Positions 35,430 to 64,000 of a DNA stretch of 64,000 nt are shown here, piece after piece. This stretch comes from Candidatus Bathyarchaeia archaeon. Lineage in GTDB: Archaea; Thermoproteota; Bathyarchaeia; Bathyarchaeales; Bathycorpusculaceae. Made by a program: the position numbers and the translations under genes. Under the pieces are notes generated by a model. The model worked only from the letters and a program-made list of their open reading frames with translations, was not told the DNA's origin and ran no database searches. The DNA lies in contig JAVZNC010000002.1 of NCBI GenBank assembly GCA_038882955.1, positions 221,209 to 285,208 of the forward strand, read 5' to 3'. Within the stretch, counting starts at the first letter, position 1. Each line of letters opens with the position of its first letter.

Positions 35430-36467
35430 TTATTCAAGGCTATCTATGTAATTGCGTATGTCCTCGGTTGCAGCTGAAGGAATTGGCAAGTCTTTCATTG
35501 TCAATAACCCTGGGCGTGCCTTAATCACCTTTGGAATTGCATTTGCAACCATCGCGACGGTTCCTATGTCACCGTGGATGCATGGTTGTATTTTTTGCCT
35601 TATTTCTGGGACTCCTTCAATTGTTATGGCGTCATACTCTTCTTCAGCGCCTAGATAAGCTTGGAACTCAAGCGTTATTACTTCTTTGTTCTTCATCATC
35701 CCTTTAGCCTTTTGTTTCAAACCTGCCACATCGCCAGCCTTAACTTCTATAAATTGACTTTTTACTGGTTTTTTGGCAATGACCGGTTCAACCTGTTCGG
35801 CTATGATTTTATCTAGTTTCCATGCAAGGGCGTCAGCAAACATTGCTATGGATTGTTCAAGCCCCACATGTCCAGTGATCTGTTTGCTTTCCATTTTTTG
35901 CCTAAATTCTTCCACGGTTAGTCCAGCACCTATCTTTTTTTGGAATGGTAATCGCCTTTTTGTCGCATCCATAACCCTTGCTGCTTCTATTTTTTCGATT
36001 TTCTGGCAAACCGCCGTTAACATTATGACAAGCGTGTCCATCAAGAAGCCCGGGTTAATGCCCGTACCAAGCACCGTAGTGTTGTATTTTTTGGCTAGGG
36101 CGTCTAATTTTTTTGCAAGTTTTGGCTCAGTGTAGTATGGATAAGTCAATTCTTCACACGTGGATATCACTTTTAAGCCGTTTTTTACAAGTGAAGCTAT
36201 TTGCGGGTACGTATCTTTAAGATAGGATGATGTTGCGTGTATTGCCAAATCCGCTCTAACCTTAGATAGGGCTTCATCAACGTCCTTTGAAATTTTTATT
36301 CCAAGACTTTTTGGCGCTCCTAATACTTCGCTCAAGTCTTTGCCCACCTTATCTTTCGCAACGTCTACGGCTCCAACGATTTCTACGCCATCCTTTTCCA
36401 ATAGAAATTTGGCGATTAACGTTCCAACTGCGCCAACGCCGAATAGGATAACCCTTACTTTGCGCAT
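35430..36467 (-). CDS. NAD(P)-dependent oxidoreductase, 2,4-diaminopentanoate dehydrogenase/DapB-like family
   Basis: GVGAVG, STCEEL, LGTGINPGFLMD, RRLPFQKKIGAG, GHVGL, GDIGT. Confidence 0.8.
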   Translation of the reverse strand: MRKVRVILFGVGAVGTLIAKFLLEKDGVEIVGAVDVAKDKVGKDLSEVLGAPKSLGIKISKDVDEALSKVRADLAIHATSSYLKDTYPQIASLVKNGLKVISTCEELTYPYYTEPKLAKKLDALAKKYNTTVLGTGINPGFLMDTLVIMLTAVCQKIEKIEAARVMDATKRRLPFQKKIGAGLTVEEFRQKMESKQITGHVGLEQSIAMFADALAWKLDKIIAEQVEPVIAKKPVKSQFIEVKAGDVAGLKQKAKGMMKNKEVITLEFQAYLGAEEEYDAITIEGVPEIRQKIQPCIHGDIGTVAMVANAIPKVIKARPGLLTMKDLPIPSAATEDIRNYIDSLE

Positions 36468-36596
36468 GTGTGTTTCACCTTCTCTTCTCTTCATTGTTTT
36501 TAGCTTATAAAATGTGCTTGCAGCATTTGTGGGATAGAGCATTGTTTAGAAACCTTTACATTTGTAAACCTTTATATCCATGAGAAAACTCAAACT

Positions 36597-38045
36597 ATGA
36601 GAGGGCCTCAAGTCTTGGCGACTGCAGAAGCCACGATGCATAAGGAAGAAATCAGAAAGCTTCTGAGCACTGAAAAGCTTAAGCACTGCTTTGAATGTGG
36701 CATTTGCACCGCAAGCTGTTCAATGGTTGAACTGCTTGGAGATGATTATAATCCACGGGGGCTTCTCGAAAAAATTTTCTTAAATGCGGAAGACGCATTA
36801 TCTTCGCATGAGCTTTGGCTATGCGCATGGTGTTACAAATGCCATAGGCGATGTCCACAAGCTCTAGAAGTTCCAGAAATCTTTCTTCTTATGCGAACAA
36901 TCGCCGTTAAACGCGGCTATATACACCCTCTGGAAAAAGCTATACAAAAAGTTGCACGAAACATCCCATTACCCCTCATAGTTACACTTGTATGCTTGCA
37001 TCCAGAGCGTGCTGGACTTAACATACAAGACGTTTTGGAAAAGGTTCAGGATGAACGCACTAAACTGAAAATGAAAAAGACGCTAAAAGGCAGTAAATGT
37101 AAAGTAGCGGTTTTAGGTTCTGGACCAGCAGGTTTAACTGTTGCTTATGAGCTTGTTCGAAAGGGTTATCCAGTAACGGTTTTTGAGTCTCTTTCAGAGC
37201 CCGGGGGAATGCTTAGAAAGTGTATACCGGAGTATCGCTTGCCAAGGGACGTTTTAGAGGATGAATTGCGTTTTTTGGAGAGTTTAGGTGTTGAGTTTAA
37301 AGTTAACGTGCATGTAGGTAAGGACTTGGGTTTTGATGATTTGTGGGATGAAGGTTATAGGGCTATTTTTGTTGGTGTTGGCGCCCATAAAAGTCAGAAA
37401 TTGAAGATTGATGGCGGAGACTTGAAGGATGTTGTTCACGCTCTAGATTTTTTGTGGCAGGTTAAAAGCGGCGTGAAAGTTGAGCTTGGCAAAAACGTTG
37501 CAGTTATTGGCGGCGGAAATGTGGCTGTAGATGCCGCCAGAACCGCTTTAAAACTCGGCGCAGAAAATGTGACAATATTCTATCGAAGGTCGAGGACTGA
37601 AATGCCCGCGAATCCGTGGGAGGTTAAGGAATCAGAGGAAGAAGGCGTAAAAACAGAGTTTTTGGTAGCTCCAAAGAGAATTTTAGGAGAAAATGGACAC
37701 GTTTCAGCTGTTGAGTTTGTCCGCATGCAGCTAGGCGAATTGGACGAGTCTGGTAGAAGAAAACCTTTACCAATAGAGGGTTCAGAGTTTGTTTTCAAAG
37801 CGGATACCATTATTTTGGCGATTGGCGAGGCTCCAGACTTAGAGTTTTTACCTAAAGGCATCGTTCTTAATGATGATGGAACAGTTTGGGTTAACCCCAT
37901 AACCATGGAAACAAGTATGCGTGGAGTTTTTGCTGGTGGAGACGTTGTTACTGGTCCAGCATCGGTTATTGAGGCTATTTGCGCTGGAAAACGTGCCGCC
38001 AACTCCATTGACCGCTACCTAAAGGCTGAGGGAGGCATGGGTTGA
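36597..38045 (+). CDS. HdrC-like 2x[4Fe-4S] domain fused to a GltD/NfnB-like FAD/NADPH oxidoreductase
   Basis: CFECGICTASC and WLCAWCYKCHRRCP (HdrC type), then GSGPAG, IPEYRLP, GGGNVAVDAAR, YRRSRTEMPA, GVFAGGD. Confidence 0.88.
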   Translation: MRGPQVLATAEATMHKEEIRKLLSTEKLKHCFECGICTASCSMVELLGDDYNPRGLLEKIFLNAEDALSSHELWLCAWCYKCHRRCPQALEVPEIFLLMRTIAVKRGYIHPLEKAIQKVARNIPLPLIVTLVCLHPERAGLNIQDVLEKVQDERTKLKMKKTLKGSKCKVAVLGSGPAGLTVAYELVRKGYPVTVFESLSEPGGMLRKCIPEYRLPRDVLEDELRFLESLGVEFKVNVHVGKDLGFDDLWDEGYRAIFVGVGAHKSQKLKIDGGDLKDVVHALDFLWQVKSGVKVELGKNVAVIGGGNVAVDAARTALKLGAENVTIFYRRSRTEMPANPWEVKESEEEGVKTEFLVAPKRILGENGHVSAVEFVRMQLGELDESGRRKPLPIEGSEFVFKADTIILAIGEAPDLEFLPKGIVLNDDGTVWVNPITMETSMRGVFAGGDVVTGPASVIEAICAGKRAANSIDRYLKAEGGMG

Positions 38046-40483
38046 TGGCTGAAGAAAAGGTGCAGAAACTTGGCGATGTTTCGGAAGAGGTTCGCATAGG
38101 TGTTTATGTTTGCCATTGCGGATTAAACATTGCTGGCTCTGTAGATTGTGAAGAAGTAGCCAAATTCGCCTCTACGCTTCCGTGTGTTGTTCTTGCCAAG
38201 GACTATAGATACACTTGTTCAGATCAAGGGCAAGCCATGATAAAGAACGATGTTAAGGAGCATAGGCTTAACCGTGTTGTTGTAGCCTCTTGTTCGCCGC
38301 GTCTTCATGAACCAACATTCCGCAAGGTTTGCGAAGAAGCTGGGCTAAACAAGTATCTTTTTGAGATGGCGAACATACGTGAGCATTGCAGTTGGGTTCA
38401 CTTGTATGATCGTGAGGCTGCCACCGAAAAAGCTAAAGATTTGGTTAAAATGGCTGTTGCAAAGGCTGCTCTGCTTCAACCCTTTGAGGAAATTGAGGTT
38501 CCAATACTTCGAAAGGCGTTAATTATTGGTGGCGGTGTTGCTGGAATTCAAGCTGCCCTAGACCTCGCAGACACTGGTTATGAGGTTTATCTTGTTGAGA
38601 AAGAGCCTAGCATCGGCGGGATGATGGCGCGAATAGACAAGACATTTCCAACAATGGACTGTTCGATCTGCATTCTTGCGCCCAAGATGTCGGATGTGGG
38701 GCATCACCCGAACATTGAACTTTTAACTAACAGCGAAGTCGTAGAGGTGAAAGGCTACATTGGCAATTTTCACGTAAAAATACTGAAAAAACCCAGATAT
38801 GTCACGAAGGACTGTTCTGCATGTGGCGAATGCACAAAAGTTTGTCCAGTCACAGCCCCAAACGAGTTCGACGCAGGCTTAGCCATGAGACACGCAATTT
38901 TCACTCCTTTTGCACAAGCAGTTCCAGCCACTTACATAATAGACATGAACCTCTGCCTCAACAAGGAAGGCATAATCGTCTGCGACAAATGCATACGAGC
39001 ATGCGAAAGGCAAGCCATAACCTTTGACATGAAACCAGAAACAGTAGAAATAGACGTTGGCACCATAATCGTGGCGACAGGCGCAGACGTTTTTGACCCT
39101 TCAACATTACCAAATTATGGATACGGGAAATCCCCAAACGTCATAACTTCACTGGAATTTGAAAGACTCATTAACGCTGGCGGGCCCTCTGGCGGACACC
39201 TAATAAGGCCAAGCGACAAGCAAATACCAAAGCGCGTGGCATTCGTCCAATGCGTAGGCTCCCGCTCCAACAGAAGCGAAAGGCAGTATTGCAGCAACGT
39301 CTGCTGCATGAACACTATTAAGGACAGCCTCCTAATCAAAGAACATTGGCCCGAAACAGAAATCTACGTCTCCTATGTTGACATAAGGGCTTATGGCAAG
39401 GGATTCGAAGACCTTTACAGACGGGCGAGAGAAGAAGGCGTCAAATTCATACGCGGATTACCCGCAGAAATAATTGAAGATAAGAAAACGCATAACTTGT
39501 GGCTTGTAGGCGAAAATACGCTGCAAAAAGAGCTATACAAAATAAATGTTGACATGGTGATATTGTCGGTTGGCTTGGAACCGCGAAAAGACAGCGAAAT
39601 GATACAGCGGCTACTCACCCTCTCCCGAACACAATACGGATTCTTCATGGAGGCGCATCCAAAACTAAGACCAGTGGACGCTGCAACTGGCGGCATATTT
39701 TTTGCCGGATGCGCTGAAGCGCCTAAAGACATAAAAGACAGCGTGACGCAAGCAAGCGCCGCTGCGGCTAGAGCTGGAATTTTGATGGCTAAGGGCAAAA
39801 TAGCTGTTGAGGCGATAACGCCTATAACTTTTCCAGAAAAATGCAAAGCTTGTGGACTCTGCACAAAAGTTTGTCCCTACAACGCTTTAACTTTAAATAA
39901 AGAGTTGAAGCGTGTAGAAGTGATAGAGGCGGCTTGCGGCGGTTGCGGAACATGCGCAGCCGAATGCCCATTCGAAGCCTTAACCCAAAAACACTTCACA
40001 GACGAACAGATTCTTGCGCAAATAGACGCCGTAACGGAACATGACGCACATAAGAAGATTGTTGCTTTCTGCTGCAACTGGTGCGCCTATGCGGGCGCGG
40101 ACTTCGCTGGAGTAAGCAGAATGCAATATCCGCCAAGTGTCCGAATAATAAGAACCATGTGTTCTGGGCGGGTTTCACCAAAATTCATTGAAAGAGCCTT
40201 TGCAAGGGGCGCTGCAGCGGTGCTTGTTGCTGGTTGTCATCCAGGAGATTGCCATTACATAAACGCCAACTACCAAACGCAGAAGCGTGTGGATCGCTTC
40301 TGGAAAAGAATGGAACAGCTAGGATTGAATAAGGAGAGACTTCAACTTTTGTGGGCTTCTGCGGCGGAAGGCGAAAGAATTGCCTCAAAAATTCGTGAGA
40401 TGCACAAGATGATAGAGAGCATTCCGTTTGAAGAAATAGAACGTTCCAAAAAGGCTTTTGAAAAAGCTTTTGGAGGAAATTAA
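38042..40483 (+). CDS. hdrA: Heterodisulfide reductase subunit A fused to a C-terminal MvhD
   Basis: GVYVCHCG, ASCSPRLHE, ANIREHCSWVH, GGGVAG, KTFPTMDCSIC, QCVGSR, YCSNVCC, then MvhD FCCNWCAY..IRTMCSGRV..GCHPGDCHY. Confidence 0.95.
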   Translation: MMAEEKVQKLGDVSEEVRIGVYVCHCGLNIAGSVDCEEVAKFASTLPCVVLAKDYRYTCSDQGQAMIKNDVKEHRLNRVVVASCSPRLHEPTFRKVCEEAGLNKYLFEMANIREHCSWVHLYDREAATEKAKDLVKMAVAKAALLQPFEEIEVPILRKALIIGGGVAGIQAALDLADTGYEVYLVEKEPSIGGMMARIDKTFPTMDCSICILAPKMSDVGHHPNIELLTNSEVVEVKGYIGNFHVKILKKPRYVTKDCSACGECTKVCPVTAPNEFDAGLAMRHAIFTPFAQAVPATYIIDMNLCLNKEGIIVCDKCIRACERQAITFDMKPETVEIDVGTIIVATGADVFDPSTLPNYGYGKSPNVITSLEFERLINAGGPSGGHLIRPSDKQIPKRVAFVQCVGSRSNRSERQYCSNVCCMNTIKDSLLIKEHWPETEIYVSYVDIRAYGKGFEDLYRRAREEGVKFIRGLPAEIIEDKKTHNLWLVGENTLQKELYKINVDMVILSVGLEPRKDSEMIQRLLTLSRTQYGFFMEAHPKLRPVDAATGGIFFAGCAEAPKDIKDSVTQASAAAARAGILMAKGKIAVEAITPITFPEKCKACGLCTKVCPYNALTLNKELKRVEVIEAACGGCGTCAAECPFEALTQKHFTDEQILAQIDAVTEHDAHKKIVAFCCNWCAYAGADFAGVSRMQYPPSVRIIRTMCSGRVSPKFIERAFARGAAAVLVAGCHPGDCHYINANYQTQKRVDRFWKRMEQLGLNKERLQLLWASAAEGERIASKIREMHKMIESIPFEEIERSKKAFEKAFGGN

Positions 40484-40486
40484 AGC

Positions 40487-40777
40487 ATGCCAGAAAGAAT
40501 TTGGCGTAAACCCCTTGACAGCGAGAAAGCAAAGCCACTGAAAGCAGAAATTCACATAATTCGCGACCAGTGTAAAGGCTGCGGCTTCTGCATTCAATAC
40601 TGCCCCCAAAAAGTTTTGGAAGAATCAAATGATATTAATGCGCGTGGGGTTCACCCGCCAAGGGTTGTTAACGAAAGCAAATGTGTTTTGTGCAGTTTTT
40701 GCACATCGGTTTGTCCAGATTTCGCCATATTCGTGATCGAAAAGAAGGAGCGAGAAGAAAATGTCAAGCATAATTAA
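40487..40777 (+). CDS. korD: 2-oxoacid:ferredoxin oxidoreductase delta subunit (ferredoxin)
   Basis: CKGCGFCIQYCP and CVLCSFCTSVCPDFAI. Confidence 0.85.
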   Translation: MPERIWRKPLDSEKAKPLKAEIHIIRDQCKGCGFCIQYCPQKVLEESNDINARGVHPPRVVNESKCVLCSFCTSVCPDFAIFVIEKKEREENVKHN

Positions 40778-41924
40778 AAAGAAGGCCATACTGACGGGCG
40801 CCCACTTCATGAACGGCGACTTTGCATGTGCAGAAGGAGCAATAGTAGCGGGCTGCAGATTCTTTGCGGGATACCCTATCACTCCAGCAACGGAAATTGC
40901 CGAGCGTCTTGCGGAAAGAATGCCAGAAGTAGGCGGAATCTACATTCAAATGGAAGACGAAATTGCATCAATTGCGGCGGTTATAGGCGCTTCCTATGCT
41001 GGATTAAAAGCCATGACCGCTACTTCTGGGCCGGGCTTTAGCCTAATGCAAGAGAACATCGGTTTGGCTGTTATGACGGAAACTCCGTGCGTAATCGTTG
41101 ATGTTATGCGTGGCGGACCAAGTACGGGACAGCCGACGATGCCGGGGCAGCAGGATGTTATGCAAGCTAAGTGGGGTTCTCATGGAGATTACGAAATTAT
41201 TGCTTTGTCGCCTTCCTCTGTTCAGGAAATGTTTGATTTGACGGTTGAAGCTTTTAACTTGTCCGAGATTTATCGTGTCCCAACGATATTGTTGGCTGAT
41301 GAGGTTGTTGGGCATATGTGGGAAAAAGTGGTTATTCCACCGCCTGAAAATTTGAGAATTGTTAATCGTAAAAAGCCAAATGTTCCGCCAGAAAAGTATT
41401 TTCCATTCATGCCCGACGACGACCTTGTTCCGCCTATGGCATGTTTCGGAGAGGGTTTCGCTTTTCACGCTACTGGTTTGACACATGATGAGCATGGTTA
41501 CCCGCAAACGCAGAGTTCAGAAGTTCAAGAACGACTTGTTAAGAGGCTCTGCGACAAGATACGAAAGAACGTGGACAAAATAGTGAAGGTTGAAGAGGTT
41601 ATGCTTGAGGACGCGGACGTTGTGGTTGTTGCCTACGGCATAGTTGCAAGAGCCGCTTTAAGCGCCGTTAGAAAGGCTAGGGCAGAGGGCATAAAGGCTG
41701 GACTTCTCCGTCCAATCACATTGTGGCCGTTCCCAGAAAAGCATGTAGGAAAAGCCGCGGAAAAAGCGAAGAAAATAGTTGTTGCAGAAATGAACTGTGG
41801 TCAACTCTTACGCGAGGTTCAAAGAGCAGCTAAAGAAACTCCAGTTGTTTTCCTTACGAAACTGGGTGAAGAACCACATACGCCTATGGAAATTTTGGAG
41901 GCAATTAGGAGGAACAATAAATGA
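40761..41924 (+). CDS. korA: 2-oxoacid (likely 2-oxoglutarate):ferredoxin oxidoreductase alpha subunit
   Basis: FFAGYPITPATE, QMEDEIAS, TSGPGFSLMQE, RGGPSTG. Confidence 0.9.
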   Translation: MSSIIKKKAILTGAHFMNGDFACAEGAIVAGCRFFAGYPITPATEIAERLAERMPEVGGIYIQMEDEIASIAAVIGASYAGLKAMTATSGPGFSLMQENIGLAVMTETPCVIVDVMRGGPSTGQPTMPGQQDVMQAKWGSHGDYEIIALSPSSVQEMFDLTVEAFNLSEIYRVPTILLADEVVGHMWEKVVIPPPENLRIVNRKKPNVPPEKYFPFMPDDDLVPPMACFGEGFAFHATGLTHDEHGYPQTQSSEVQERLVKRLCDKIRKNVDKIVKVEEVMLEDADVVVVAYGIVARAALSAVRKARAEGIKAGLLRPITLWPFPEKHVGKAAEKAKKIVVAEMNCGQLLREVQRAAKETPVVFLTKLGEEPHTPMEILEAIRRNNK

Positions 41925-42760
41925 CAACGGAGGTTGAACATCCGCTCTCACGGTATTTGCGAAAGGCTATGATGCCTCACATATGGTGTTCTGGATGTGG
42001 CAACGGCATAATCCTCAACTGCTTCGTTCACGCAGTGGATGAGCTGCAAATGGACATGGACAAGCTTGTGGTTGTTTCTGGAATTGGCTGTATTGGGCGT
42101 GCAGCGGGCTACATAAACACAAATTCCTTCCACACAACACACGGTCGCCCAATAGCTTTTGCTACTGGAGTGAAACTTGCTAACCCAAACCTTGAAGTAG
42201 TCGTCATAAGTGGCGACGGCGACCTCTTCGCAATTGGTGGAAACCACTTCATACATGCAGCGCGGAGAAACATAGGGATAAAGGTGATCTGCGCAAACAA
42301 CTTCAATTATGGAATGACTGGTGGACAACAGGGACCAACAACACCACTTGAAGCAATTACAACAACAACGCCTTATGGAAACATTGAGCATCCATTCAAC
42401 CTTGTTCACCTCGCTGCGGCTTCTGGGGCAACGTATGTGGCCAGGTGGACAACGCTTCATGTGCGCAGGTTGACGCAGTCAATTAAGAGGCTCTTGCAGA
42501 AGGATGGCTTCGGCTTTATTGAAGTTGTTTCGCCATGTCCCGAAATTTATGGTCGGCACAACAAGATGAGAACTGGACTTGAAATGATGGAGTGGTTTAG
42601 AAGAAGCTCCGTGGTGGAAAACTTTTCCGATCCTGCGAAGGCTGAAATTACTCCGCAAAGGATAGTTGTTGGAGAATTTATGAACATAGATAAGATAAGT
42701 TATGAGAGATTTCTCCATGAGAAGATAGCGCATATAAATGAGGAGAAAATGTGGCGGTGA
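41921..42760 (+). CDS. korB: 2-oxoacid:ferredoxin oxidoreductase beta subunit
   Basis: WCSGCG, SGIGC, HTTHGR, GDGD..AIGGNH (TPP motif), YGMTGGQ. Confidence 0.92.
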   Translation: MTTEVEHPLSRYLRKAMMPHIWCSGCGNGIILNCFVHAVDELQMDMDKLVVVSGIGCIGRAAGYINTNSFHTTHGRPIAFATGVKLANPNLEVVVISGDGDLFAIGGNHFIHAARRNIGIKVICANNFNYGMTGGQQGPTTPLEAITTTTPYGNIEHPFNLVHLAAASGATYVARWTTLHVRRLTQSIKRLLQKDGFGFIEVVSPCPEIYGRHNKMRTGLEMMEWFRRSSVVENFSDPAKAEITPQRIVVGEFMNIDKISYERFLHEKIAHINEEKMWR

Positions 42761-42767
42761 TTTAAAT

Positions 42768-43313
42768 ATGCGAGTTGAAGTTAGATTTGCAGGTTTCGGC
42801 GGTCAAGGCATAATAAAATCTGGCATAATTGTGGCGTCAGCTGCATGTATTTACGGCGGAAAAAACGCCGTCCAAACACAGTCTTATGGTCCAGAATCTA
42901 GGGGTGGCGCTTGCAAATCCGAAGTTGTCATAGCCGAAGAGGACATCGATTTTCCCAAAGTTGTTGAACCAGACGTGTTGGTTGTGATGTCTCAACACGC
43001 CTACAACGAGTATGCGGAAAACGTTAAAGCTGGTGGAACAATACTTTTAGATCCAGACATGATCCCCCACGAGAGAGATTTACGTGGCGTAAAGGTTTTT
43101 CGTGTACCAGCAACGCGAATTGCTGAAGAACTTGGCAGAAAAATTGTTGCCAACATAGTTATGCTTGGCGCTTTTGCGTCAATCACCAAACTTATTGATA
43201 AGGACGCTGTGAAAAGCGCCATTAAAGACAATGTGCCCAAAGGAACTGAAGAGTTAAATCTCAACGCTTTCGAAATGGGTTATAATTATGGAGAAAACCT
43301 TCTGAAAAGCTAG
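42768..43313 (+). CDS. korC: 2-oxoacid:ferredoxin oxidoreductase gamma subunit
   Basis: AGFGGQG, SYGPESRGG, ANIVMLGA. Confidence 0.9.
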   Translation: MRVEVRFAGFGGQGIIKSGIIVASAACIYGGKNAVQTQSYGPESRGGACKSEVVIAEEDIDFPKVVEPDVLVVMSQHAYNEYAENVKAGGTILLDPDMIPHERDLRGVKVFRVPATRIAEELGRKIVANIVMLGAFASITKLIDKDAVKSAIKDNVPKGTEELNLNAFEMGYNYGENLLKS

Positions 43314-56493: not shown

Positions 56494-56598
56494 AGGTTGT
56501 TCACCTTTTTCATGAATATAATCGGGGCAACCTATTAAACTTTAAGTTGCGGAAAACGTTATATTAGGTTGTTTTTTCCACTTTTTTGGGAGGAAGGG

Positions 56599-57756
56599 AT
56601 GATGGGGGCTAGGAGTCTTGGGCGTCTAAGCGTGTGTGCCGTCGAGATTGAGGAGTTTTGCGGTGACGAGCTGGTTGCCAGGTTTTTGGCTAAGTATTCT
56701 GTTCACGCGAAGCGAGACTATTCGAGGGTGCTGTGCCTCTTTTTCAAGTGGCTCAAGGCGAGGGGGTTGGAGCTTTCGCCTCGAGAGCTTTTGAACACGC
56801 ATTTTAGGAAGCTTTCAAGCCAGGACGTTTTGGAGAGGCAGTGGGCTAGCCACTTGGTGGCGGACTTTTTAAACAGCGACTTGTTTGAGGGGAAAAGCTC
56901 CAGCTACAAGGCTTTGGCTTTCACGGCGATAAAGTCCCTCTTCAACTTTTACGATGCACCCTTGACTTTGGCAAGGAATCCCTTGGCGATTAAGGTTAGA
57001 AGGAAACACAAGCCGAAGCAAATCAGCCTCTACGAGGCGAAGCACGTGCTGGGCGTTTTGAGACAGCGGGAGAAAACCATCTGCCTCATAATGCTACAAA
57101 GCGGAATGAGCATCGGCGACGTGCTTAACAAGTTCAATTTCATGCTGGACTATGTGAAGCGCGAAATCGCCATGGGCAAAGAGCGCATCCGCATAGACCT
57201 GGAGGACCGAAAGGGCAACGGGTTCAGCTACTTCACCTTCATCAGCCGCGACGCCATCCACGAACTCAAAAAGTGGCTGATGATTCGCGACCAGTGGGCT
57301 AAAAAGATAGGCGAAAAAAGGGTGGCAAAAGCCATATTCATAAAGAAAAACGGAAAAACCCTTACAACAAAGTCCTTCCTAGAGAAGCTCTACCACACCC
57401 TCAGACACCACAAACTCAAAAGCGGACCGTTCGACGTCACCAGCCACATGTTCCGCAAGCTTTTCAAGACTGAAAGCAGACCGCCCGAACGCAACATAGA
57501 CCAGGACTGCATAGAGTTTATGATGGGACACAAGAGTAGCTTGGACGGGGTCGGCGGACCCTACGACCGCACACCAGAGCTCTACGACAAAGTTATCGAA
57601 CGCGAATACGCCAAGCTTGAGCCCTACATAAACATCTTCACAGGCAAACAAGCCCAGGACGACGTGAAAGAGCAAGTTTGGCGGCTCTTGACAAGACCAG
57701 ACGTTCTGAAATGGCTAGAGAGGAAAGCAAAAGAAGACGGAATAGTTGTCGAATAG
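56599..57756 (+). CDS. Tyrosine recombinase/integrase
   Basis: SGMSIGDVL (box I with Ser at the Arg position), SHMFRKLF (HxxR), FMMGH, downstream Tyr. Confidence 0.88.
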   Translation: MMGARSLGRLSVCAVEIEEFCGDELVARFLAKYSVHAKRDYSRVLCLFFKWLKARGLELSPRELLNTHFRKLSSQDVLERQWASHLVADFLNSDLFEGKSSSYKALAFTAIKSLFNFYDAPLTLARNPLAIKVRRKHKPKQISLYEAKHVLGVLRQREKTICLIMLQSGMSIGDVLNKFNFMLDYVKREIAMGKERIRIDLEDRKGNGFSYFTFISRDAIHELKKWLMIRDQWAKKIGEKRVAKAIFIKKNGKTLTTKSFLEKLYHTLRHHKLKSGPFDVTSHMFRKLFKTESRPPERNIDQDCIEFMMGHKSSLDGVGGPYDRTPELYDKVIEREYAKLEPYINIFTGKQAQDDVKEQVWRLLTRPDVLKWLERKAKEDGIVVE

Positions 57757-57764
57757 CACCCGTA

Positions 57765-58256
57765 TTACAAACCCTTATCTGCGTTTCTAAGACCGCTCTC
57801 ATTATCGCTAACCATTTTATTTGATAAATACTTGCGCATTCTTATTTCGGTCAGCTGCCTTCCCACCTCATGCCTCTGCTTTGCCACTTCCATAAGGTTG
57901 ATAAAAAGGTGCAGGTTCTCCTTTGCGACAACCGCGTCCAAATTGGTCAACCCCTCAGAGTTCAAGCCGAGCGATGTAGCTAAGTCGCGTAGGTCGTTGA
58001 GAACGTCAAGTTCAACGAGTTGGCGGGTCAAGCGCTTGGGCTTCTCAATAAGCGTGGAGTATCTTTGCTTGAGCGCTTTATAGCGGGCTTCAATGTCTGA
58101 ACCGCCTTCTTCGGAAAGTCATTTTTCCAGCAAATCGTTAACCAAAGCGCAGAACCGAATGCCGAGGCGCTTGCATTTTGCCTTAGCCTTCTCCATCGTG
58201 GCTATAGACAGATAGAACGATTGATAGATAGCCCCGTCGTATTTCTGGTATTTCAT
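57765..58256 (-). pseudogene. RHH + coiled-coil gene interrupted by an in-frame TGA (58119-58121)
   Basis: From ATG 58256: MKYQKYDGAIYQSFYLSIATMEKAKAKCKRLGIRFCALVNDLLEK*LSEE..., continuing in frame into the 57765-58031 ORF. Confidence 0.7.
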
Positions 58257-58298
58257 ATTTCTCCTAAGGAAAAATCAGTATATGCCTAAGACGGGGGA

Positions 58299-58387
58299 AT
58301 CGTAATATTACGTTGGCACCAGAGCATCGTAATATTCGGGCAATTGTTATATTGCGTTGGCGTTGGAGCATTGTAATAAAACAGACA
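58299..58387. repeat. 44-bp duplicated unit with four AT(C/T)GT(A/T)ATA motifs and the palindrome CGTAATATTACG
   Basis: Motifs start at 58299, 58326, 58343 and 58370; the palindrome is at 58301-58312. Confidence 0.75.
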
Positions 58388-58402
58388 ACTGCAATAGAAG
58401 TC

Positions 58403-58467
58403 GTTCTGTAGGAACCCTCTATAAGAAGCCTCTGTAAGATTCTTCTATAAGACTCTTCTATTAATTA
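58403..58467. repeat. Five tandem 13-bp iteron-like repeats (consensus cYTCT(A/G)TAAGA)
   Basis: TCT(A/G)T cores at 58405, 58418, 58431, 58444 and 58457, an exact 13-bp period. Confidence 0.8.
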
Positions 58468-59027
58468 AAACTCTCTATGCGACCCCATTTTAGCTCTTTT
58501 CCGCTATCTGTATGTTAAGAATCACCCGTCCGCGAGTTTTCCAGCCTTGGAGTTTCCGTTGCTGATAATCAACGTTATCAGAAATGTGGGAAAACGGTTC
58601 TAGTAAGAAATTTTTGAAAAACCTTTTGAACGCGCAATATAAAGAGGAGTTTCCACCCAACCCCAAAATGTCGATAAGGTTTTTCGCGAAGAGAAAGAAA
58701 CTTGCCCCACATGTCCCTTTCAAAATTATTCACTCGTGCGGGTAATGTCGCCCAACATAGTTCAGATGCAACTATGTTAGCAATCTGAAAAACCAGTAGT
58801 TTGTCTGCTCTATTTGAATTCACTTCTTCCCTGAAAAGTGGCAAGTTTCCCAAACTCCAACTCTTCATTCCATCTTCACATTAAGGCGAATTATCGTCCA
58901 CGGTCAAGTTCTGACTCGTGAACAAACCTATTTTTCTAATAAGGGAGGCGAAACTACGGCTTCAAATGTTCCACCAGTATCTACTACTTCCTCAACGCTT
59001 GGGAGAGTTAGAGGATTCACTATTGAT

Positions 59028-59636
59028 TTGCTCTTTATTCTTTATGAAGGTGCAGCAAGATGCTGTGAGCTGTCAGAAAGAACTGGAAAACCCTCGCAAT
59101 ACGTGCGCCGATACCTTGCAAATATGCGGAAATATGGTTTGGCTGAGCAGAATGGCGCTTTTTGGTTTTTAACCGATTCCGGGGTTTCTTTTACTGAACA
59201 TCTTAAAAGACACTATGAAAATATATTAAATAATACGTTTATAGAATATAGAAAGAAAGAAGAAAGAAAAGAGAAAGATAAAAGAAAGCTTACTGAAAAA
59301 CGGAAAGCATTTCAGGCTGAGCTGAAGCAAATTTCCGCCTCTTTCTGGCTTTCCGAATCGGAGCTTTCTGTAACCGAGAAGGAAGTAGTAGAATTACTGG
59401 TGAATCATTACAATCAGTCAGGTTCAAAATTTATCCTGGTTAAAGATGAATTTGAGCTTTCAGAAAAGCTAAAGGCAAATTCAGGAGACGTTCTCGAAGC
59501 TTTAAAAAACTTGAGACAAAACAACATAATATACCTTATTCGGTCGGAGTTCAAGGGATACTGGAAAGTTGGATTGAAAAAGAATTTTTTCATTATGCTC
59601 CAAAATTCATCAGCGGAGCAAGGTCCATGCATTTAG
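59028..59636 (+). CDS. Double winged-HTH protein, candidate replication/regulatory protein of the element
   Basis: ArsR-like wHTH (ELSERTGKPSQYVRRYLANMRKYGL), K/E/R-rich linker, second wHTH. The frame stays open upstream to 58818 without a standard start codon. Confidence 0.6.
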   Translation: MLFILYEGAARCCELSERTGKPSQYVRRYLANMRKYGLAEQNGAFWFLTDSGVSFTEHLKRHYENILNNTFIEYRKKEERKEKDKRKLTEKRKAFQAELKQISASFWLSESELSVTEKEVVELLVNHYNQSGSKFILVKDEFELSEKLKANSGDVLEALKNLRQNNIIYLIRSEFKGYWKVGLKKNFFIMLQNSSAEQGPCI

Positions 59637-59863
59637 GGTTGTCGGACTACGAGGTTGGCAGATGGTTCAAAATGCTGATGGAAAAGTTCCCAGACAAATA
59701 TCCGAGTCAACAAGCTGTCGCCGACAAGTTCAAAATCGCTCAACCGCATGTCGCCAGACTGATTGAACATTACGAGTTTCTCGAAGAAATGAAAGGAAAG
59801 ATGCCGTCCTACATTATACCACGTGGCATAATGTTGCCTGAAGGCTTCATCCGCGAGGTCTGA
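59627..59863 (+). pseudogene. ParB-like HTH fragment
   Basis: LSDYEVGRWFK..YPSQQAVADKFKIAQPHVARLI resembles a ParB/Spo0J HTH. No N-terminal domain; ends at a TGA followed by in-frame RAPEEI. Confidence 0.55.
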
Positions 59864-60001
59864 CGCGCCCCAGAGGAAATTTCAGTTAAAAGTTGATGGG
59901 AGTAATTTTTAACACGTAGTTAAAGTGTAGTAGGAGGAAAGTCCTAGAAAAATATTGAGATGATGCGAGGTCGACGAGGTTGCGAGAATCTAATTTTGCT
60001 T

Positions 60002-60234
60002 TTACTTTGATTTTGTCAGAGAGGCTATTGCTTCTACTATTATTGACAAGCCTATAAGCACAATAACTGTTTGCCACAATGGTAAATTATAGCCAAGTAA
60101 TGTGGCGACTCCAAATGTTAGAGCAAAAATTCCAATTAATATGCCGATTTGGCTCAAGCGCATCCCAAAATTCTCCTGATCACGTTTAAACCTACTAAGA
60201 TAATTCCGATACCTAATGCAACGTAAGTTCCCAT
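60002..60234 (-). pseudogene. Frameshifted small membrane protein
   Basis: MGTYVALGIGIILVGLNVIRRI shifts frame into GMRLSQIGILIGIFALTFGVATLLGYNLPLWQTVIVLIGLSIIVEAIA. Confidence 0.5.
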
Positions 60235-60910
60235 TGAAACGAGTATGTGCGTTGTGGTTATAAAGCTACAAAGGAGAAGTGGAATTGCTCAAGTGGAAAT
60301 GCCCAAACTGCCTCTACAAGGTTGCACGAAAGGTGTGATCACCTGTAGTCCAAAGGATAAAAGCTGTATAACCAAACCATCGGAACCAAATTTATTATTC
60401 CATTTTCTTTTTAGGTTTCAGATAAAATTCAGTCGAGGAGTAATATTTTGAGTTTTAGGATAAAAGTTAAACGACAGCTATTTCCTCCAGCTTAGCTACA
60501 TCTATCTTGGCTTAAATGATTAAAACATTTAAAGGAATGCTTCGGCGAATGTATTCGTTGAAAATCGCCAGCTTAAAATTATGAATGCAGCCGGAGCTTG
60601 GTTCAAAAATTTTGATAAAAGGTATCGTAACACAGGATTTTATAGAATCTGGGATTTTATGCCAGATAGACTAAGCAAGGATGAAATGGAAGAATTTTAC
60701 ACCATAATTCAAAACATAAAAAATAAGGTTTCATCAAGTGGTCCGAAGACTATTTGCGGTTAGTGTCTCCTAACAGAAAAGTGAGCTGTATTGAGGACGT
60801 TTCGCAATGAAAGAGGCGTTCCAATCGACCTGACCGAATGGCTTGTACATATATAATTATATAAAATAACAAAAAGTTTTTATATTATTATATTTTTATA
60901 TTATGTTGAG

Positions 60911-61366
60911 ATGATTGACATGAGAAAGACGCATGCAGATAAAATACGCGAGGCAGTAACGGAATTGGGGCTGGCGTCTCCTAAAGAAATCATGGATTGG
61001 ATAAAAAAACATTATTCAGATGACCCTGTTAATCCCCATTCCTATAGAGCCGATATAATCGGTTGCAGCGTAAATCATAGTTCATCTCATCATTATCCCA
61101 GCATGCCCAAGTTCCTTTATTATGAAAAGAACCTAAGAAAATACAGGCTTTACAACCCTGAAAAAGATGGTAAAGAGCATGAAACATTAGAAACACTTGA
61201 GGAAGAGATACCCTACAGCAAGATCAGTACCACAGGGCAACTCTATCTACCAAGTTCCATTCAAAGAGAGCTTAATGTAAAGCCAGGAGACATAATTGTC
61301 TTTCAGAAAAATGATAAAGGAGAAATTACGCTGAAGAAGGGCAAGCTGAAGATAGAAGTCGAATAA
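60911..61366 (+). CDS. wHTH-like domain fused to a C-terminal AbrB domain
   Basis: The C-terminus SKISTTGQLYLPSSIQRELNVKPGDIIVF is AbrB/SpoVT. The N-terminal SVNHSSSHHYP...YRLYNP domain resembles ones found on restriction-type nucleases. Confidence 0.7.
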   Translation: MIDMRKTHADKIREAVTELGLASPKEIMDWIKKHYSDDPVNPHSYRADIIGCSVNHSSSHHYPSMPKFLYYEKNLRKYRLYNPEKDGKEHETLETLEEEIPYSKISTTGQLYLPSSIQRELNVKPGDIIVFQKNDKGEITLKKGKLKIEVE

Positions 61367-61442
61367 CTGAATTTGCGCGAGATTGCCAAACTAGGTAAGA
61401 AAGCATCTAAAAGACCTGTCCATTAGTGATCGTTAACAGAAG

Positions 61443-62000
61443 TTGCCATTTTGTGCAAGTTGTCATGTTATGCGGAAGAATATGCGACCTCGCGATGAGG
61501 TTTTATATGAGCCGCCAAGTGGTGTGGGAGCAAGTTTGACAATTCGTTATCTTCTACCAAGGAATCAGAGTTTAAAGGCTTTACCTTTAGATCTTAATGA
61601 TAAAACAACTCTGATGCAATCCTCTGAGCAGGTAGCTAGCGCTAAATTTGAAGATATAGCGAGAAGATTTATGAGCAAATATTTTGGCGTTACTCTTTCG
61701 CGGTGTAAGATTTTGAATATTCCTAAATCACTTGACATGGTGTCCGATGACGGTAGAATTGTTGGAGACGCAAAATATTTCACCATGGTCAGAGGCGTTT
61801 CAATTTCGCCAGCAAAGTTTTCCGTAATCGCCGAACATATTTGGCTATTAGAAAAAACTTCAGCCAAACATAAGTTCCTAGTGTTTGGAAACGATCGCAG
61901 AGTTCCATTAGAATGGCTCAAAAGATATGGGCACTTAGTAAAAGATGTAATATTCTACTTCTTAGATGTGCCAAGTCAAAAATTAGAAAAACTTAACTAA
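61443..62000 (+). CDS. PD-(D/E)XK nuclease-like protein, N-terminus probably eroded
   Basis: KFE...LDMVSDDGRIVGDAKY (D..DxK core); N-terminal CHVM..MRPRDEVLYEPPSGVGASLTIRY half-domain. Confidence 0.65.
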   Translation: MPFCASCHVMRKNMRPRDEVLYEPPSGVGASLTIRYLLPRNQSLKALPLDLNDKTTLMQSSEQVASAKFEDIARRFMSKYFGVTLSRCKILNIPKSLDMVSDDGRIVGDAKYFTMVRGVSISPAKFSVIAEHIWLLEKTSAKHKFLVFGNDRRVPLEWLKRYGHLVKDVIFYFLDVPSQKLEKLN

Positions 62001-62063
62001 GTTTAAAAAACTTTTCGCGGATATGTATCTAACTATTTACTGCCTATGGCTAGGTAGTAAAAT

Positions 62064-62540
62064 TTAACTTTCCTCATACTCACCCATTTCCTCGTAAAGC
62101 TTCGCAGCTTCCTCATATCTTCCTGCATCTCTAAGGTTATTTGCAAAAATTTTCTGGGCTTGGTGCACATACTCTCCCTCCAATATTGGATCGACATAGA
62201 TGGATGTCGGACGGGTTGTAGCAATTTGAGTATATAACTTGAACAGGTGCTCATTAGACATCCCACAAAGCATGTTCAATTTAACTCGTAACATAGTAAA
62301 AACGGTTGTTGAAAAATTTGTAACTCGGTTCCAATCAACTGTTTAAATGAATCATGCTCTATCGTTTTCAAAAGATATTGTTTAAGTTCATTTAAACAGT
62401 CCTCGTAACACTTTTTTCATCCGCTGGCTTAAATGTCACTACATGTATGCCACATTTGCTGCAGCATCTTTACCACAAATAACGCATTTAAAAATCTTCA
62501 AGAATATGCCTTTACTACCACAATTTGGACAGTTACCCAT
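62064..62540 (-). pseudogene. Fragmented Zn-ribbon/TPR-like gene
   Basis: MGNCPNCGSKG...CVICGKD shifts frame to CSKCGIH; a later piece reads DAGRYEEAAKLYEEMG. Confidence 0.5.
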
Positions 62541-62779
62541 AATTACACGCCCATAACAAGTTAAATAAGATTATTTTCAATAATTAGGCTTGCGTTTTTT
62601 ATAACATAACCCAACAAGCTTGACAGGTATTTAAGCTTCCTTAAGATTTTGGATATGAAAGGTTTTCACCTGCGCTACCATTAACGCACGCTACTAACTT
62701 CAATCGGTTACGATATACCCTAAAAAACTAAAAACTCCCAGCTTTCTGTTAGTCGCTGTTAACAGAATATCAAAGTGCC

Positions 62780-63874
62780 TTGCATTTCTTTAGTTTTAAA
62801 TATGAAATGGTTGTGATTAATGAATTGGTGTTAATCGTGTCTTTCGTGACTATTGATTCTGGTGATTTTGTTCGGAAAGGTAAGCGCGGCGCTTTTAAGG
62901 CTTGCACTGGAGTTGCTTTGACGATTGATAGGGTTGATGCGTTTGAGTCGGCTTATTTTGATCTTCTTGAGAAGTTGTGTAAAAAGTATGGTGTTGTAAG
63001 GAAGAAGTTGGTTTATAAGGCTTATGATGTCCTTTCGGCGTTGTCGCTTAAGGATGGCGTATCCTTTCTGAATGAATTATTTGACGGTCTTTCTGATTGG
63101 TTTGTGAATGTTGATTTTTACTATTCTTATTTGTTTACGGAGAAAGTGCCTGTAGTGAAGTTATATGGAGCTGATAAAAGTGGCGTTGAGGAAGTGAAGC
63201 CTGTTGAGTTTTTGAATAAGCTTAGTTCGAGTTACCCTCACTGTTGTGCTTGGAAATACGTCTATGACCATAGTGATGCAAATGTTATTTTTCATTTAGA
63301 TCATTTTGAGGGTGAAGTTACGCTTGGGTGGGAACTTATTAAGGATAGGGATTTGAATGTTTATCTTGCGGGTGACGAAATGTATCCTTTTCTTGCTGTG
63401 GCGGACATCGCTGTTGAGCTTTTGGACCGTAGATTGTATTTTTCGAAGGCTTCTCTTTTTCCAAAGAATATCTATTCTTGCTTTAAGGAGTTAGGGGATA
63501 AGCTTCGAGTGAATTTCTTGGGGCAGAAATATTTGAAGTATATAACGCCTATAAAGAAGCAGAAAATAGATGTGCTGCCTAAACTTAAACGCCCTTTGAT
63601 TTTCATTTTTAAGGAGTATCCTCCTGGTTTTAAAGATGAAAGACAGCTTGTTCAGGATTCTCCTTTATGGAGTCGTATCTGTGAATTTGCATATAATAGG
63701 AAAGGAACTGTGAAGTTTGTTGATCCAAATTCTAAGGAGGATCGTCGTTTGCTTTTGACTGGTGGAATTGCTATCTGCATAGGAGCAGAAGGTGTTAAAG
63801 CTGCAAAATATTTGCAGAATTTAGGCGTAGACATAGAAATTGTTAAAGCTTCAACATTAATTTCCAAAAAATAG
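62780..63874 (+). CDS. Hypothetical protein, possible RNase H-fold (DUF3800-like) nuclease
   Basis: VTIDSG near the N-terminus, HLDHFE, GDEMYPFLAVADI acidic motifs; the true start may be GTG 62837. Confidence 0.5.
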   Translation: MHFFSFKYEMVVINELVLIVSFVTIDSGDFVRKGKRGAFKACTGVALTIDRVDAFESAYFDLLEKLCKKYGVVRKKLVYKAYDVLSALSLKDGVSFLNELFDGLSDWFVNVDFYYSYLFTEKVPVVKLYGADKSGVEEVKPVEFLNKLSSSYPHCCAWKYVYDHSDANVIFHLDHFEGEVTLGWELIKDRDLNVYLAGDEMYPFLAVADIAVELLDRRLYFSKASLFPKNIYSCFKELGDKLRVNFLGQKYLKYITPIKKQKIDVLPKLKRPLIFIFKEYPPGFKDERQLVQDSPLWSRICEFAYNRKGTVKFVDPNSKEDRRLLLTGGIAICIGAEGVKAAKYLQNLGVDIEIVKASTLISKK

Positions 63875-63898
63875 TATATTTTTAACTATTGCGCGAAT

Positions 63899-63928
63899 GG
63901 ATGTGCCCTCTGGTCTGAGAGCACATCC
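63899..63928. other. GC-rich hairpin downstream of the last ORF
   Basis: GGATGTGC/GCACATCC 8-bp stem plus an inner CTC/GAG stem. Confidence 0.5.
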
Positions 63929-64000
63929 GCAAGAATAAACAAGTGAAAAACATTATTTAAGATTTATGGAAGATTAATTCACTGAGTTTTGTGTGTGTGT

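Follow-up and report, generated by a model that had tools for sequence, protein, structure and literature searches.

What does HdrA do in archaea that do not make methane? HdrA homologues are abundant in the non-methanogenic Bathyarchaeia, Asgard archaea and Hadarchaeota, and excerpts of papers on these groups repeatedly call the disulfide substrate of HdrA unknown (PMC9723716, 10.1101/2023.11.21.568159). The question takes a concrete form in a 64,000-nucleotide stretch of DNA (hereafter the window; positions 221209-285208 of the 285-kb contig JAVZNC010000002.1, or C2, of a Bathyarchaeia genome labelled G000), where six plus-strand open reading frames (ORFs) at window positions 36597-43313 encode an HdrC-like NADP(H) flavoprotein, an HdrA-MvhD fusion and the four subunits of a Kor-type 2-oxoacid:ferredoxin oxidoreductase (OFOR). 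This operon is real, strongly conserved and mechanistically suggestive. As to its function, the sequence suggests a heterodisulfide-free HdrA complex, in which three electron-transfer arms would meet at the HdrA FAD in bifurcation or confurcation, a reading that is given about an even chance of being correct. It offers a testable answer for one clade of HdrA, namely that an NADP(H) flavoprotein stands in place of the HdrB/heterodisulfide arm. The genes of the operon are as follows.

36597..38045, plus strand: NfnB/GltD-type NADP(H) flavoprotein with an HdrC-like N-terminal domain, 482 amino acids (aa), identified by domain models, motifs and fold
38042..40483, plus strand: HdrA-MvhD fusion of HdrA2 type, 813 aa, identified by model NF040770 and alignment with 5odc
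40052..40423, plus strand: MvhD/FlpD domain of the HdrA-MvhD fusion, about aa 671-794, identified by domain match
40487..40777, plus strand: KorD, delta subunit with 2x[4Fe-4S], 96 aa, identified by two invariant Cys motifs
40761..41924, plus strand: KorA, alpha subunit, 387 aa, PRK08659 above cut-off
41921..42760, plus strand: KorB, beta subunit, binding thiamine pyrophosphate (TPP), 279 aa, identified by TPP_enzyme_C
42738..43313, plus strand: KorC, gamma subunit, 191 aa, PRK08537 above cut-off

The successive junctions measure -4, +3, -17, -4 and -23 nucleotides (nt), in agreement with the initial annotation, made from the sequence alone, which had described genes overlapping or at most 7 bp apart. 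ORF and domain annotation places neither an HdrB nor a hydrogenase gene inside the six-gene operon, as had also been claimed, and a whole-genome search for the CCG domain gave no match on contig C2.

The first protein joins a dicluster domain to an NADP(H)- and FAD-binding unit. Its HdrC-like 2x[4Fe-4S] domain occupies about aa 20-125: Pfam places Fer4_8/Fer4_17 at aa 28-90, HdrC models match aa 19-117 (TIGR03290 at 69 bits, under its cut-off of 160), and a comparison of aa 21-118 with the PDB retrieves HdrC chains only (8rvv_C, 5.9e-17; 5odc_C, 1.1e-16), with both Cys motifs aligned. The alignment stops at HdrC residue 120 of 183-185, while the chain goes on into the flavin unit, Pyr_redox_2 and GltD/NfnB-type models spanning aa 81-478. 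All eight cysteines of the two CX2CX2CX3C motifs (C31/34/37/41 and C76/79/82/86) are invariant in 40 sequences, as are the Gly/Ser/Pro positions of the FAD site (GSGPAG, aa 174-179). The NADP(H) motifs GGGNVA (aa 305-310) and YRR (aa 329-331), to which the initial annotation had drawn attention, are present and align with the same segment of the NADP(H)-binding NfnI-L, NfnB, StnC and NfnA of NfnABC. When a profile of 20 orthologous N-terminal domains was compared by hhalign with proteins of the same genome, it matched the genome's own HdrC with 99.6% probability (E 2e-23, 41% identity) and its own NfnB more weakly (91.8%, E 7.6e-7). In the latter alignment the second motif of the flavoprotein falls on the first motif of NfnB, and the second NfnB motif is reduced to C133; there is no Pfam match to Fer4_20 in the flavoprotein, nor the Cys pattern of NfnB/GltD.

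An AlphaFold2 model of the flavoprotein, built with 40 sequences, reaches a mean confidence (pLDDT) of 90.6 and a predicted template-modelling score (pTM) of 0.90. Over residues 16-477 it superimposes on NfnI-L 5jca_L (Z 41.2, rmsd 3.3 Å, 393 aligned residues), and it also superimposes on 4ylf_B (Z 40.5) and on NfnB, GltD and DPD. This superposition of the whole protein implies that the HdrC-like domain occupies the place of their own dicluster domain, and the reading given to the flavoprotein is that of an NADP(H) module of NfnB/GltD type in which an HdrC-type dicluster domain has taken the place of the original one or arisen from it by remodelling. The earlier label of an HdrC-GltD fusion is therefore right in substance, an HdrC-type dicluster being joined to an NADP(H)/FAD unit, but 'fusion' overstates the architectural novelty, because NfnB, NfnI-L and GltD already possess an N-terminal dicluster domain, which here is HdrC-like in sequence. 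With HdrC the protein shares the dicluster motifs and not the form of a free-standing subunit of ~180-200 aa beside hdrB; with GltD/NfnB it shares the FAD and NADP(H) motifs and the fold, and not an adjacent NfnA (PyrK-like) or GltB partner. Its two-domain architecture of ~480 aa forms approximately eight clusters at 50% identity among 1.84 billion library representatives, and many larger proteins in that library have a GltD-like unit fused into HdrA itself.

The second protein bears out the claimed HdrA-MvhD fusion. It passes the NCBIfam HdrA2 model NF040770 (1260.6 bits, cut-off 1100), and its HdrA core (aa 15-664) aligns along its full length with residues 2-649 of 5odc_A (851.9 bits), visibly keeping the Cys motifs; the FAD site and the Fe-S Cys motifs are thus retained. 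A Pfam FlpD/MvhD domain follows at aa 673-793 (169.6 bits) and matches 5odc_D at 157 bits. An alignment of 28 orthologues has a mean column identity of 84% and six invariant Cys in the MvhD part. The partner typical of HdrA2, HdrB2C2, is missing, there being no CCG/HdrB gene in the operon or on contig C2.

Genes three to six encode a Kor-branch OFOR, in the subunit order delta, alpha, beta, gamma (POR_N, PFOR_II, TPP_enzyme_C, POR and dicluster delta domains), so that the identification as KorDABC can be retained. The models for alpha and gamma score above cut-off (KorA with PRK08659, 597.2 bits against 411; KorC with PRK08537, 251 bits against 235). KorD matches OGOR_delta NF042987 at 69 bits, under the cut-off of 125, and its two CX2CX2CX3CP motifs are invariant in 22 orthologues. 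The best PDB match of KorA is 1yd7_A, a generic 2-keto acid enzyme of P. furiosus (465 bits), followed by 8ys5_A, the alpha subunit of a 2-oxoglutarate synthase (290 bits). Judged by sequence, 2-oxoglutarate is the likeliest substrate.

The level of conservation was studied in an order-level set of 41 genomes, source genome included, in a phylum-level sample of 201 genomes, and in the best 80 matching public loci, a set that overlaps in genomes with the 17 relatives discussed here and so is not independent of them. A full-length flavoprotein gene is present in 18 of the 41 order genomes and in 3 of the 201 across the phylum. In all 17 relatives HdrA-MvhD follows the flavoprotein gene (the two genes are hereafter termed the pair), and Kor follows in 15, the other two contigs ending inside hdrA. 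The 80 loci comprise 72 tandem pairs, 4 divergent pairs, 3 weaker paralogues and 1 locus cut by a contig end, so that the two genes are adjacent in 76/80; the junctions between them are mostly -4 to +7 nt. Of the tandem pairs, 61 have further sequence on the contig, and Kor follows in 58 of them; 11 further loci end at or in hdrA. All six genes are complete in 47 loci, where the flavoprotein averages 63% identity to its counterpart in the window, HdrA 84% and the Kor subunits 72-81%. An arrangement that recurs in 17/17 relatives with the first gene and across the public loci lies well outside chance, and the search across genomes that had been proposed finds the operon conserved.

Some loci call for separate comment. 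A one-ORF fusion of the pair, suspected in L059 (1282 aa), proved on translation to contain an internal stop, and no one-ORF fusion occurs in the 80 loci. L110 (Bathyarchaeota BA2), L129 (Methylomirabilota) and L130 (Eisenbacteria) were considered as instances of the module and rejected as different paralogues, and are not counted; they are 52%, 43% and 45% identical to the flavoprotein, respectively, and have Fer4_20-type GltD units or split HdrA genes. The contig of L113 begins within the flavoprotein gene and shows no HdrA downstream, and a divergent HdrA may lie upstream. In L117, korD alone keeps its orientation.

Kor is not the only enzyme beside which the pair is found. In L109, from a metagenome-assembled genome (MAG) labelled Thermococci, and in L122, from Hadarchaeota, the order is mtd-ftr-[pair]-fwdDB-fwdA-fwdC, with the Fwd models all above cut-off and fwdD-fwdB present as a fusion. 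A polyferredoxin adjoins the pair in L119 and L123, the latter also having AOR close by. The placing of the pair beside Kor, Fwd or polyferredoxin implies a portable unit set next to enzymes of ferredoxin potential, and the pair looks like an NADP(H)-HdrA unit at the service of different low-potential enzymes of CO2 handling. The coupling to a 2-oxoacid enzyme proposed in the initial annotation agrees with the frequency of Kor after tandem pairs, but Kor is a lineage-specific client, its place being taken elsewhere by Fwd or polyferredoxin.

A tree of HdrA (MAFFT and FastTree, arbitrarily rooted, without methanogen sequences) places the HdrAs linked to the pair in one clade, split from the genome's other HdrA paralogues with a support of 1.0. 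They score 1245-1260 bits with the HdrA2 model versus 787-1095 for the other paralogues, the nearest of which in the genome are polyferredoxin-linked HdrAs; under the arbitrary rooting, members linked to polyferredoxin or to Fwd branch off below those linked to Kor. One locus within this clade, L078 (CP147779.1, 1205370-1222761), lies on a complete Atabeyarchaeia (Asgard) chromosome and has all six genes, which are 64-80% identical to those of the window. The HdrA of this locus is nested among those of Bathyarchaeia next to L071 with a support of 1.0, which points to gene transfer, and transfer of the operon from Bathyarchaeia is accordingly suggested; the Ord-like, S3Ae and SerRS genes that neighbour the operon in the window were not found at this locus. 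Separately, two contigs labelled as bacterial, L102 (Anaerolineales) and L106 (Krumholzibacteriaceae), carry HdrA-MvhD after a flavoprotein gene of 56-57% identity to the window. KorD, A, B and C are present as well in L106, whereas L102 ends inside hdrA and has MoaE and Ord-like genes of Bathyarchaeia type upstream; both contigs are probably mis-binned archaeal DNA.

The docking of the two proteins was predicted from HdrA residues 145-658 and the full flavoprotein, with separate alignments, in three runs with three controls. The interface score (ipSAE) was 0.83 (0.82, 0.84 and 0.83 in the individual runs), against 0.01 for the best control; in a benchmark, the mark set for this score was reached by 58/80 solved complexes and 2/110 mismatched pairs. 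The runs share at least 93% of their contacts, and the pLDDT of the partner is at least 84. On the flavoprotein side the interface consists of residues 27-55 and 85-89, which hold the two Cys motifs, and a few residues of the flavin domain; on the HdrA side it consists of residues 354-358, 404-415 (the CVGSR stretch) and 446-500. The model speaks for docking in the manner of HdrC, in which the flavoprotein would contact HdrA by its HdrC-like domain.

Whether an HdrB or a hydrogenase might be supplied from a distance depends on the remainder of the genome (1.54 Mb in 31 contigs, completeness 95.6%, contamination 6.1%). The absence of a hydrogenase holds for the operon but not for the genome, in which whole-genome searches find two MvhAG sets and five CCG/HdrB-type genes, all of them placed in gene contexts of their own. 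Two canonical HdrB genes sit in MvhAG-HdrBC clusters that have their own HdrA; an HdrD-like gene faces an Etf-linked HdrA (HdrA/MvhD-EtfBA); a TfrB-like CCG gene lies ~5 kb from an Mvh-Hdr cluster; and the fifth CCG gene comes after a gene for a GlcD-like flavoprotein, in a neighbourhood where no HdrA was seen. A 40-kb 'Hdr island' at positions 146000-186000 of contig C1 contains TfrAB-like genes, AOR and two Mvh-Hdr clusters, of which the first comprises MvhAG-HdrB-HdrC-MvhD, a 1009-aa double HdrA and MvhD-like, 585-aa GltD-like and GcvH-like proteins, and the second HdrB-HdrC-HdrA/MvhD-MvhAG. The 585-aa GltD-like protein is NAD(P)-binding with a C-terminal ferredoxin domain, and its presence in an MvhAG-HdrBC cluster makes it a second GltD-like HdrA partner in the same genome. 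A canonical NfnAB is found in the island at C1:175-177 kb, along with a polyferredoxin-MvhD protein and a thioredoxin reductase, and the HdrD-like gene with the HdrA/MvhD-EtfBA that it faces is located there too. Near-identical methyltransferase-polyferredoxin-HdrA/MvhD loci also occur at C3:108-112 kb and C15:3-7 kb, their HdrA-MvhD proteins (815 and 818 aa) scoring slightly under the HdrA2 cut-off (1091.6 and 1094.8 bits); given 6% contamination, these two loci may be strain variants and not true paralogues.

The metabolic setting was assessed in the same genome. At a completeness of 95.6%, searches for citrate synthase (PF00285) and for a molybdopterin oxidoreductase (PF00384, the family of FdhA/FwdB) found nothing. 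The genome does encode SucC and a TfrAB/SdhAB-like (fumarate reductase-like) pair. The failure to find citrate synthase points to a reductive role for a Kor, and a Kor in this genome probably makes 2-oxoglutarate. The organism may lack formylmethanofuran dehydrogenase, though relatives in other phyla link the pair to Fwd.

Taken together, an HdrC-like domain on an NADP(H) unit, the adjacency of the pair, the predicted docking and the separate contexts of the CCG genes make an arm that ends at NADP(H) the most economical reading, as the initial annotation had proposed for the HdrC branch, the electron path itself being the part that should be taken conditionally. HdrA-MvhD would bind the NADP(H) flavoprotein where HdrC normally sits. 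In the first arm, electrons would pass between the HdrC-like clusters, the GltD-type FAD and NADP(H), which would replace HdrB and the heterodisulfide as the higher-potential end. In the second, the ferredoxin domains of HdrA would lead through KorD to the TPP site of Kor, the low-potential end, with 2-oxoglutarate / succinyl-CoA + CO2 or a related 2-oxoacid as the couple. That the MvhD domain is retained suggests a third partner, and the third arm would run from the fused MvhD [2Fe-2S] centre to a mid-potential partner encoded elsewhere, the top candidate being one of the two MvhAG [NiFe] hydrogenases. The potentials of NADP+/NADPH (about -320 mV) and of ferredoxin or 2-oxoglutarate synthase (about -500 mV) have a mean near that of H+/H2 (-414 mV), so that the arithmetic fits H2 as the third partner. 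In one direction, H2 would be the reductant of both NADP+ and Kor, and glutamate synthesis would be supplied with 2-oxoglutarate and NADPH; in the other, during amino-acid fermentation, electrons from NADPH and from the oxidation of a 2-oxoacid would be combined by confurcation to yield H2. Both directions make physiological sense, the reductive one in view of the presence of SucC, the fumarate reductase-like pair, glutamate dehydrogenase (GDH) and glutamine synthetase (GS) and of the unfound citrate synthase, and the oxidative one in view of the Ord-like dehydrogenase. We infer, as distinct from observe, the third partner, the reaction direction, the Kor substrate, the electron path and the contact of Kor with HdrA, be it direct or ferredoxin-mediated.

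A more specific form of this scheme is possible, if on balance doubtful. With MvhAG on its MvhD domain, the pair would constitute an archaeal [NiFe] bifurcating hydrogenase, using NADP+ as its high-potential acceptor and passing the low-potential electron straight to 2-oxoglutarate synthase in Bathyarchaeia, or to formylmethanofuran dehydrogenase in Hadarchaeota and the MAG labelled Thermococci. If this were true, it would be a heterodisulfide-free Hdr and a functional analogue of bacterial HydABC/Hyt, and would explain the role of HdrA in non-methanogenic archaea without coenzymes M and B (CoM, CoB).

Several observations weigh against the three-armed complex or against parts of it. Three tandem pairs have no Kor, and in none of the examined loci does a hydrogenase gene lie in the operon or next to it, both MvhAG sets of the genome adjoining other HdrA genes. 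The co-occurrence of MvhA with the pair was considered as support for the third partner and set aside as non-discriminating: MvhA is present in 18/18 order genomes with the pair, and also in 19/23 without it (37/41 in all). The multimer check, favourable as to docking at the HdrC-like domain, may reflect the model's memory of solved HdrA-HdrC structures, and the HdrA in it was truncated. The 2-oxoglutarate-specific NCBIfam models all fall under cut-off for this Kor (KorA with PRK09627, 411.7 bits against 579; KorB with PRK09628, 272.9 against 364), and a second Kor-type KorABC is encoded at C1:267-270 kb (alpha 375, beta 280 and gamma 176 aa), having no delta-subunit gene beside it, unlike the HdrA-linked Kor; two Por/Vor-type enzymes and one Ior are also encoded in the genome. 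Finally, bifurcation could take place at the GltD-type FAD, as it does in NfnB, in which case the wiring would change.

Among the alternatives, the one that survives best is itself unlikely: a linear, non-bifurcating 2-oxoacid:NADP+ oxidoreductase, in which electrons leaving Kor by way of KorD would cross the clusters and FAD of HdrA, enter the flavoprotein at its HdrC-like clusters and reach NADP+ from the GltD-type FAD. HdrA would then do no more than conduct electrons or switch between one- and two-electron transfer, and MvhD would have a structural role. Every part needed for this is encoded in the operon, which cannot be said of the third partner, and the potential of 2-oxoacid oxidation is low enough to reduce NADP+ unaided. 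NAD(P)-linked OFORs are known, for example the phenylglyoxylate:NAD+ oxidoreductase PadEFGHI, whose NCBIfam models match weakly, and the conserved divergent Ord-like dehydrogenase would fit amino-acid catabolism. However, the clusters of the GltD-type flavoprotein could take single electrons from KorD on their own, which would make superfluous an 813-aa HdrA-MvhD that is conserved at 84% identity and keeps all HdrA cofactor motifs and the six invariant MvhD Cys. A purely oxidative chain also sits poorly with the service of the pair to Fwd, in lineages where CO2 reduction needs energy input, and with the reductive role of a Kor indicated by the unfound citrate synthase.

A second alternative is quite improbable. 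NADPH would here be the bifurcation donor, as NADH is in FlxABCD-HdrABC, sending one electron to Kor or ferredoxin and the other to a high-potential acceptor reached via MvhD or a distant HdrBC or HdrD, such as a disulfide re-oxidised by the TfrAB-like fumarate reductase. The genome does hold a TfrAB-like pair, an HdrD-like gene and two HdrBC sets, a reductive branch requires both fumarate reduction and 2-oxoglutarate synthesis, and GltD-type units are NADPH entry modules in GltBD and Nfn/Stn, according to PDB titles. A like logic appears in the excerpted description of a reductive tricarboxylic acid (rTCA) cluster of tubeworm symbionts, which joins NADH-Flx, HdrABC, KorABCD and TfrAB. Against these points, no CCG-domain gene occurs on the 285-kb contig or beside the pair in any annotated locus, one of the five CCG genes comes after the GlcD-like gene while each of the others either is the TfrB-like gene or has another HdrA beside or near it, and the predicted docking through the HdrC-like motifs would leave no obvious site for a second HdrC.

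It is also held to be decidedly unlikely that the pair forms a free-standing NADPH:ferredoxin module resembling Nfn, with Kor as a co-regulated neighbour that shares the soluble ferredoxin pool. The pair does occur without Kor in 3 tandem and 4 divergent loci, and the identity of Kor to the window is more variable than that of HdrA (means of 72-81% versus 84%). This would leave unexplained why Kor follows 58/61 tandem pairs, with a 3-nt gap or overlaps in the window, why Fwd or polyferredoxin stands in the same position when Kor is absent, and why the HdrA-linked Kor has a delta subunit when the genome's other Kor-type enzyme does not; a canonical NfnAB is, moreover, already present. Assembly of this HdrA with a distant HdrBC is a less economical reading than an HdrC arm that ends at NADP(H).

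The proposed complex resembles several known systems in part. In relation to the MvhAGD-HdrABC complex of hydrogenotrophic methanogens, whose structure 5odc was reportedly obtained by Wagner and colleagues in 2017, the HdrA core corresponds to 5odc_A, the MvhD part to 5odc_D and the N-terminal domain of the flavoprotein to 5odc_C. It differs in having MvhD as part of the HdrA chain, in an HdrC portion that breaks off after about residue 120 and gives way to an NADP(H) flavoprotein, and in the lack of HdrB and MvhAG in the operon. To our knowledge, the source organism has not been found to make CoM-S-S-CoB. NfnAB/NfnI, NfnABC and StnABC (4ylf, 5jca, 9n5u, 9bov, 8oh5) share with the first protein its fold (Z 40-42) and the GGGNxA...YRR motif; in the window, by contrast, the partner is HdrA, with no adjacent NfnA/PyrK-like or HydB-like partner, and the dicluster domain is HdrC-like, the second Cys motif of NfnB type being degenerate. 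In the Fdh-Hdr-Fmd supercomplex of Methanospirillum hungatei, which Watanabe and colleagues are said to have described in 2021 (PDB 7bkb), HdrA is reportedly wired directly to a low-potential CO2-reducing enzyme. The position of the pair inside an mtd-ftr-fwd cluster in Hadarchaeota and the MAG labelled Thermococci recalls this, whereas the HdrBC, formate dehydrogenase and polyferredoxin bridge of the supercomplex are not in the window operon.

The remaining comparisons draw on papers available in excerpt. HdrA2B2C2 of Methanosarcina acetivorans has an HdrA with a fused MvhD domain, and there HdrA2 acts on CoM-S-S-CoB together with HdrB2C2, taking electrons from F420H2 or ferredoxin (PMC5296606; Yan, Wang and Ferry 2017). 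The HdrA-MvhD of the window passes the HdrA2 model, and has as its partner an NADP(H) flavoprotein, then Kor. In tubeworm symbionts and Thioflavicoccus, korABCD is interleaved with flxABCD-hdrABC (flxABCD-hdrA-korABCD-hdrBC), and direct delivery of bifurcated electrons to 2-oxoglutarate:ferredoxin oxidoreductase (OGOR) was proposed for the symbiont cluster (PMC6315080, PMC11636981). That cluster likewise sets a four-subunit Kor beside HdrA and a pyridine-nucleotide entry module; unlike the operon it is bacterial, its module is the NADH-linked FlxABCD, it keeps HdrBC and TfrAB, and, as far as these excerpts describe it, it has no HdrC-GltD protein and no MvhD fusion. HdrA9-11 of ANME-1 also combine HdrA with a GltD/NfnB-type NADP(H) unit, an NfnB-like domain being inserted in HdrA (Chadwick et al. 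2022, PMC9012536). By the same excerpts, the unit there interrupts the inserted ferredoxin domain of HdrA in one chain, whereas in the window it is a separate subunit attached via an HdrC-like domain. The literature search found no description of the pair or the operon; the review of HdrA modules by Appel et al. 2021 and the supplements of PMC6315080 (S5) and PMC9012536 (S8-S10) may bear on it.

The same two-gene unit is thus attached to two low-potential CO2-handling enzymes, Kor and Fwd. Were the three-armed complex to prove correct, it would extend the list of flavin-based bifurcating systems, and would explain how uncultured archaea reach or dispose of ferredoxin-level potentials without methanogenic cofactors. 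All six proteins are ordinary in size and in principle expressible.

Two features upstream of the operon can be added to those listed above.

36571..36577, plus strand: TATA-like box TTTATAT, 20-26 nt before the first ATG, read from the sequence
35430..36542, minus strand: Ord-like (2,4-diaminopentanoate dehydrogenase-like) amino-acid dehydrogenase, identified by DAP_DH_C and DapB_N domains

The first is a possible archaeal promoter, which would give a very short leader or none. The Ord-like gene and MoaE are the upstream neighbours on the minus strand, and S3Ae and SerRS lie downstream on the same strand, convergent with the operon; the genes flanking the operon are unrelated housekeeping genes, the Ord-like dehydrogenase being a possible functional neighbour. 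It matches the Ord model NF040740 at 354.4 bits, under the cut-off of 400, and is divergent and adjacent in 44/68 loci having at least 1.3 kb upstream. The fit with the amino-acid dehydrogenase-like gene that the initial annotation suggested is favoured by this retention; the GDH locus, invoked at the same time, is 33 kb away, and GS lies 8 kb from the operon, both being in the window.

The closest public relatives of the window are MAGs labelled Bathyarchaeia, and the DNA sequencing runs containing the stretch are hot-spring metagenomes. The GDH ORF (window 2032-3819, plus strand) is listed with a GTG start giving 595 aa, and its match to GDH begins at residue 173; the true start is probably further downstream than the listed GTG. 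At the other end of the window, a phage-integrase-family gene (56569-57756) is followed by a low-G+C stretch to 64000 with ORFs that have no Pfam match, the G+C content at 60-64 kb being 0.37 versus ~0.43 elsewhere, and the region 56569-64000 may be an integrated element.

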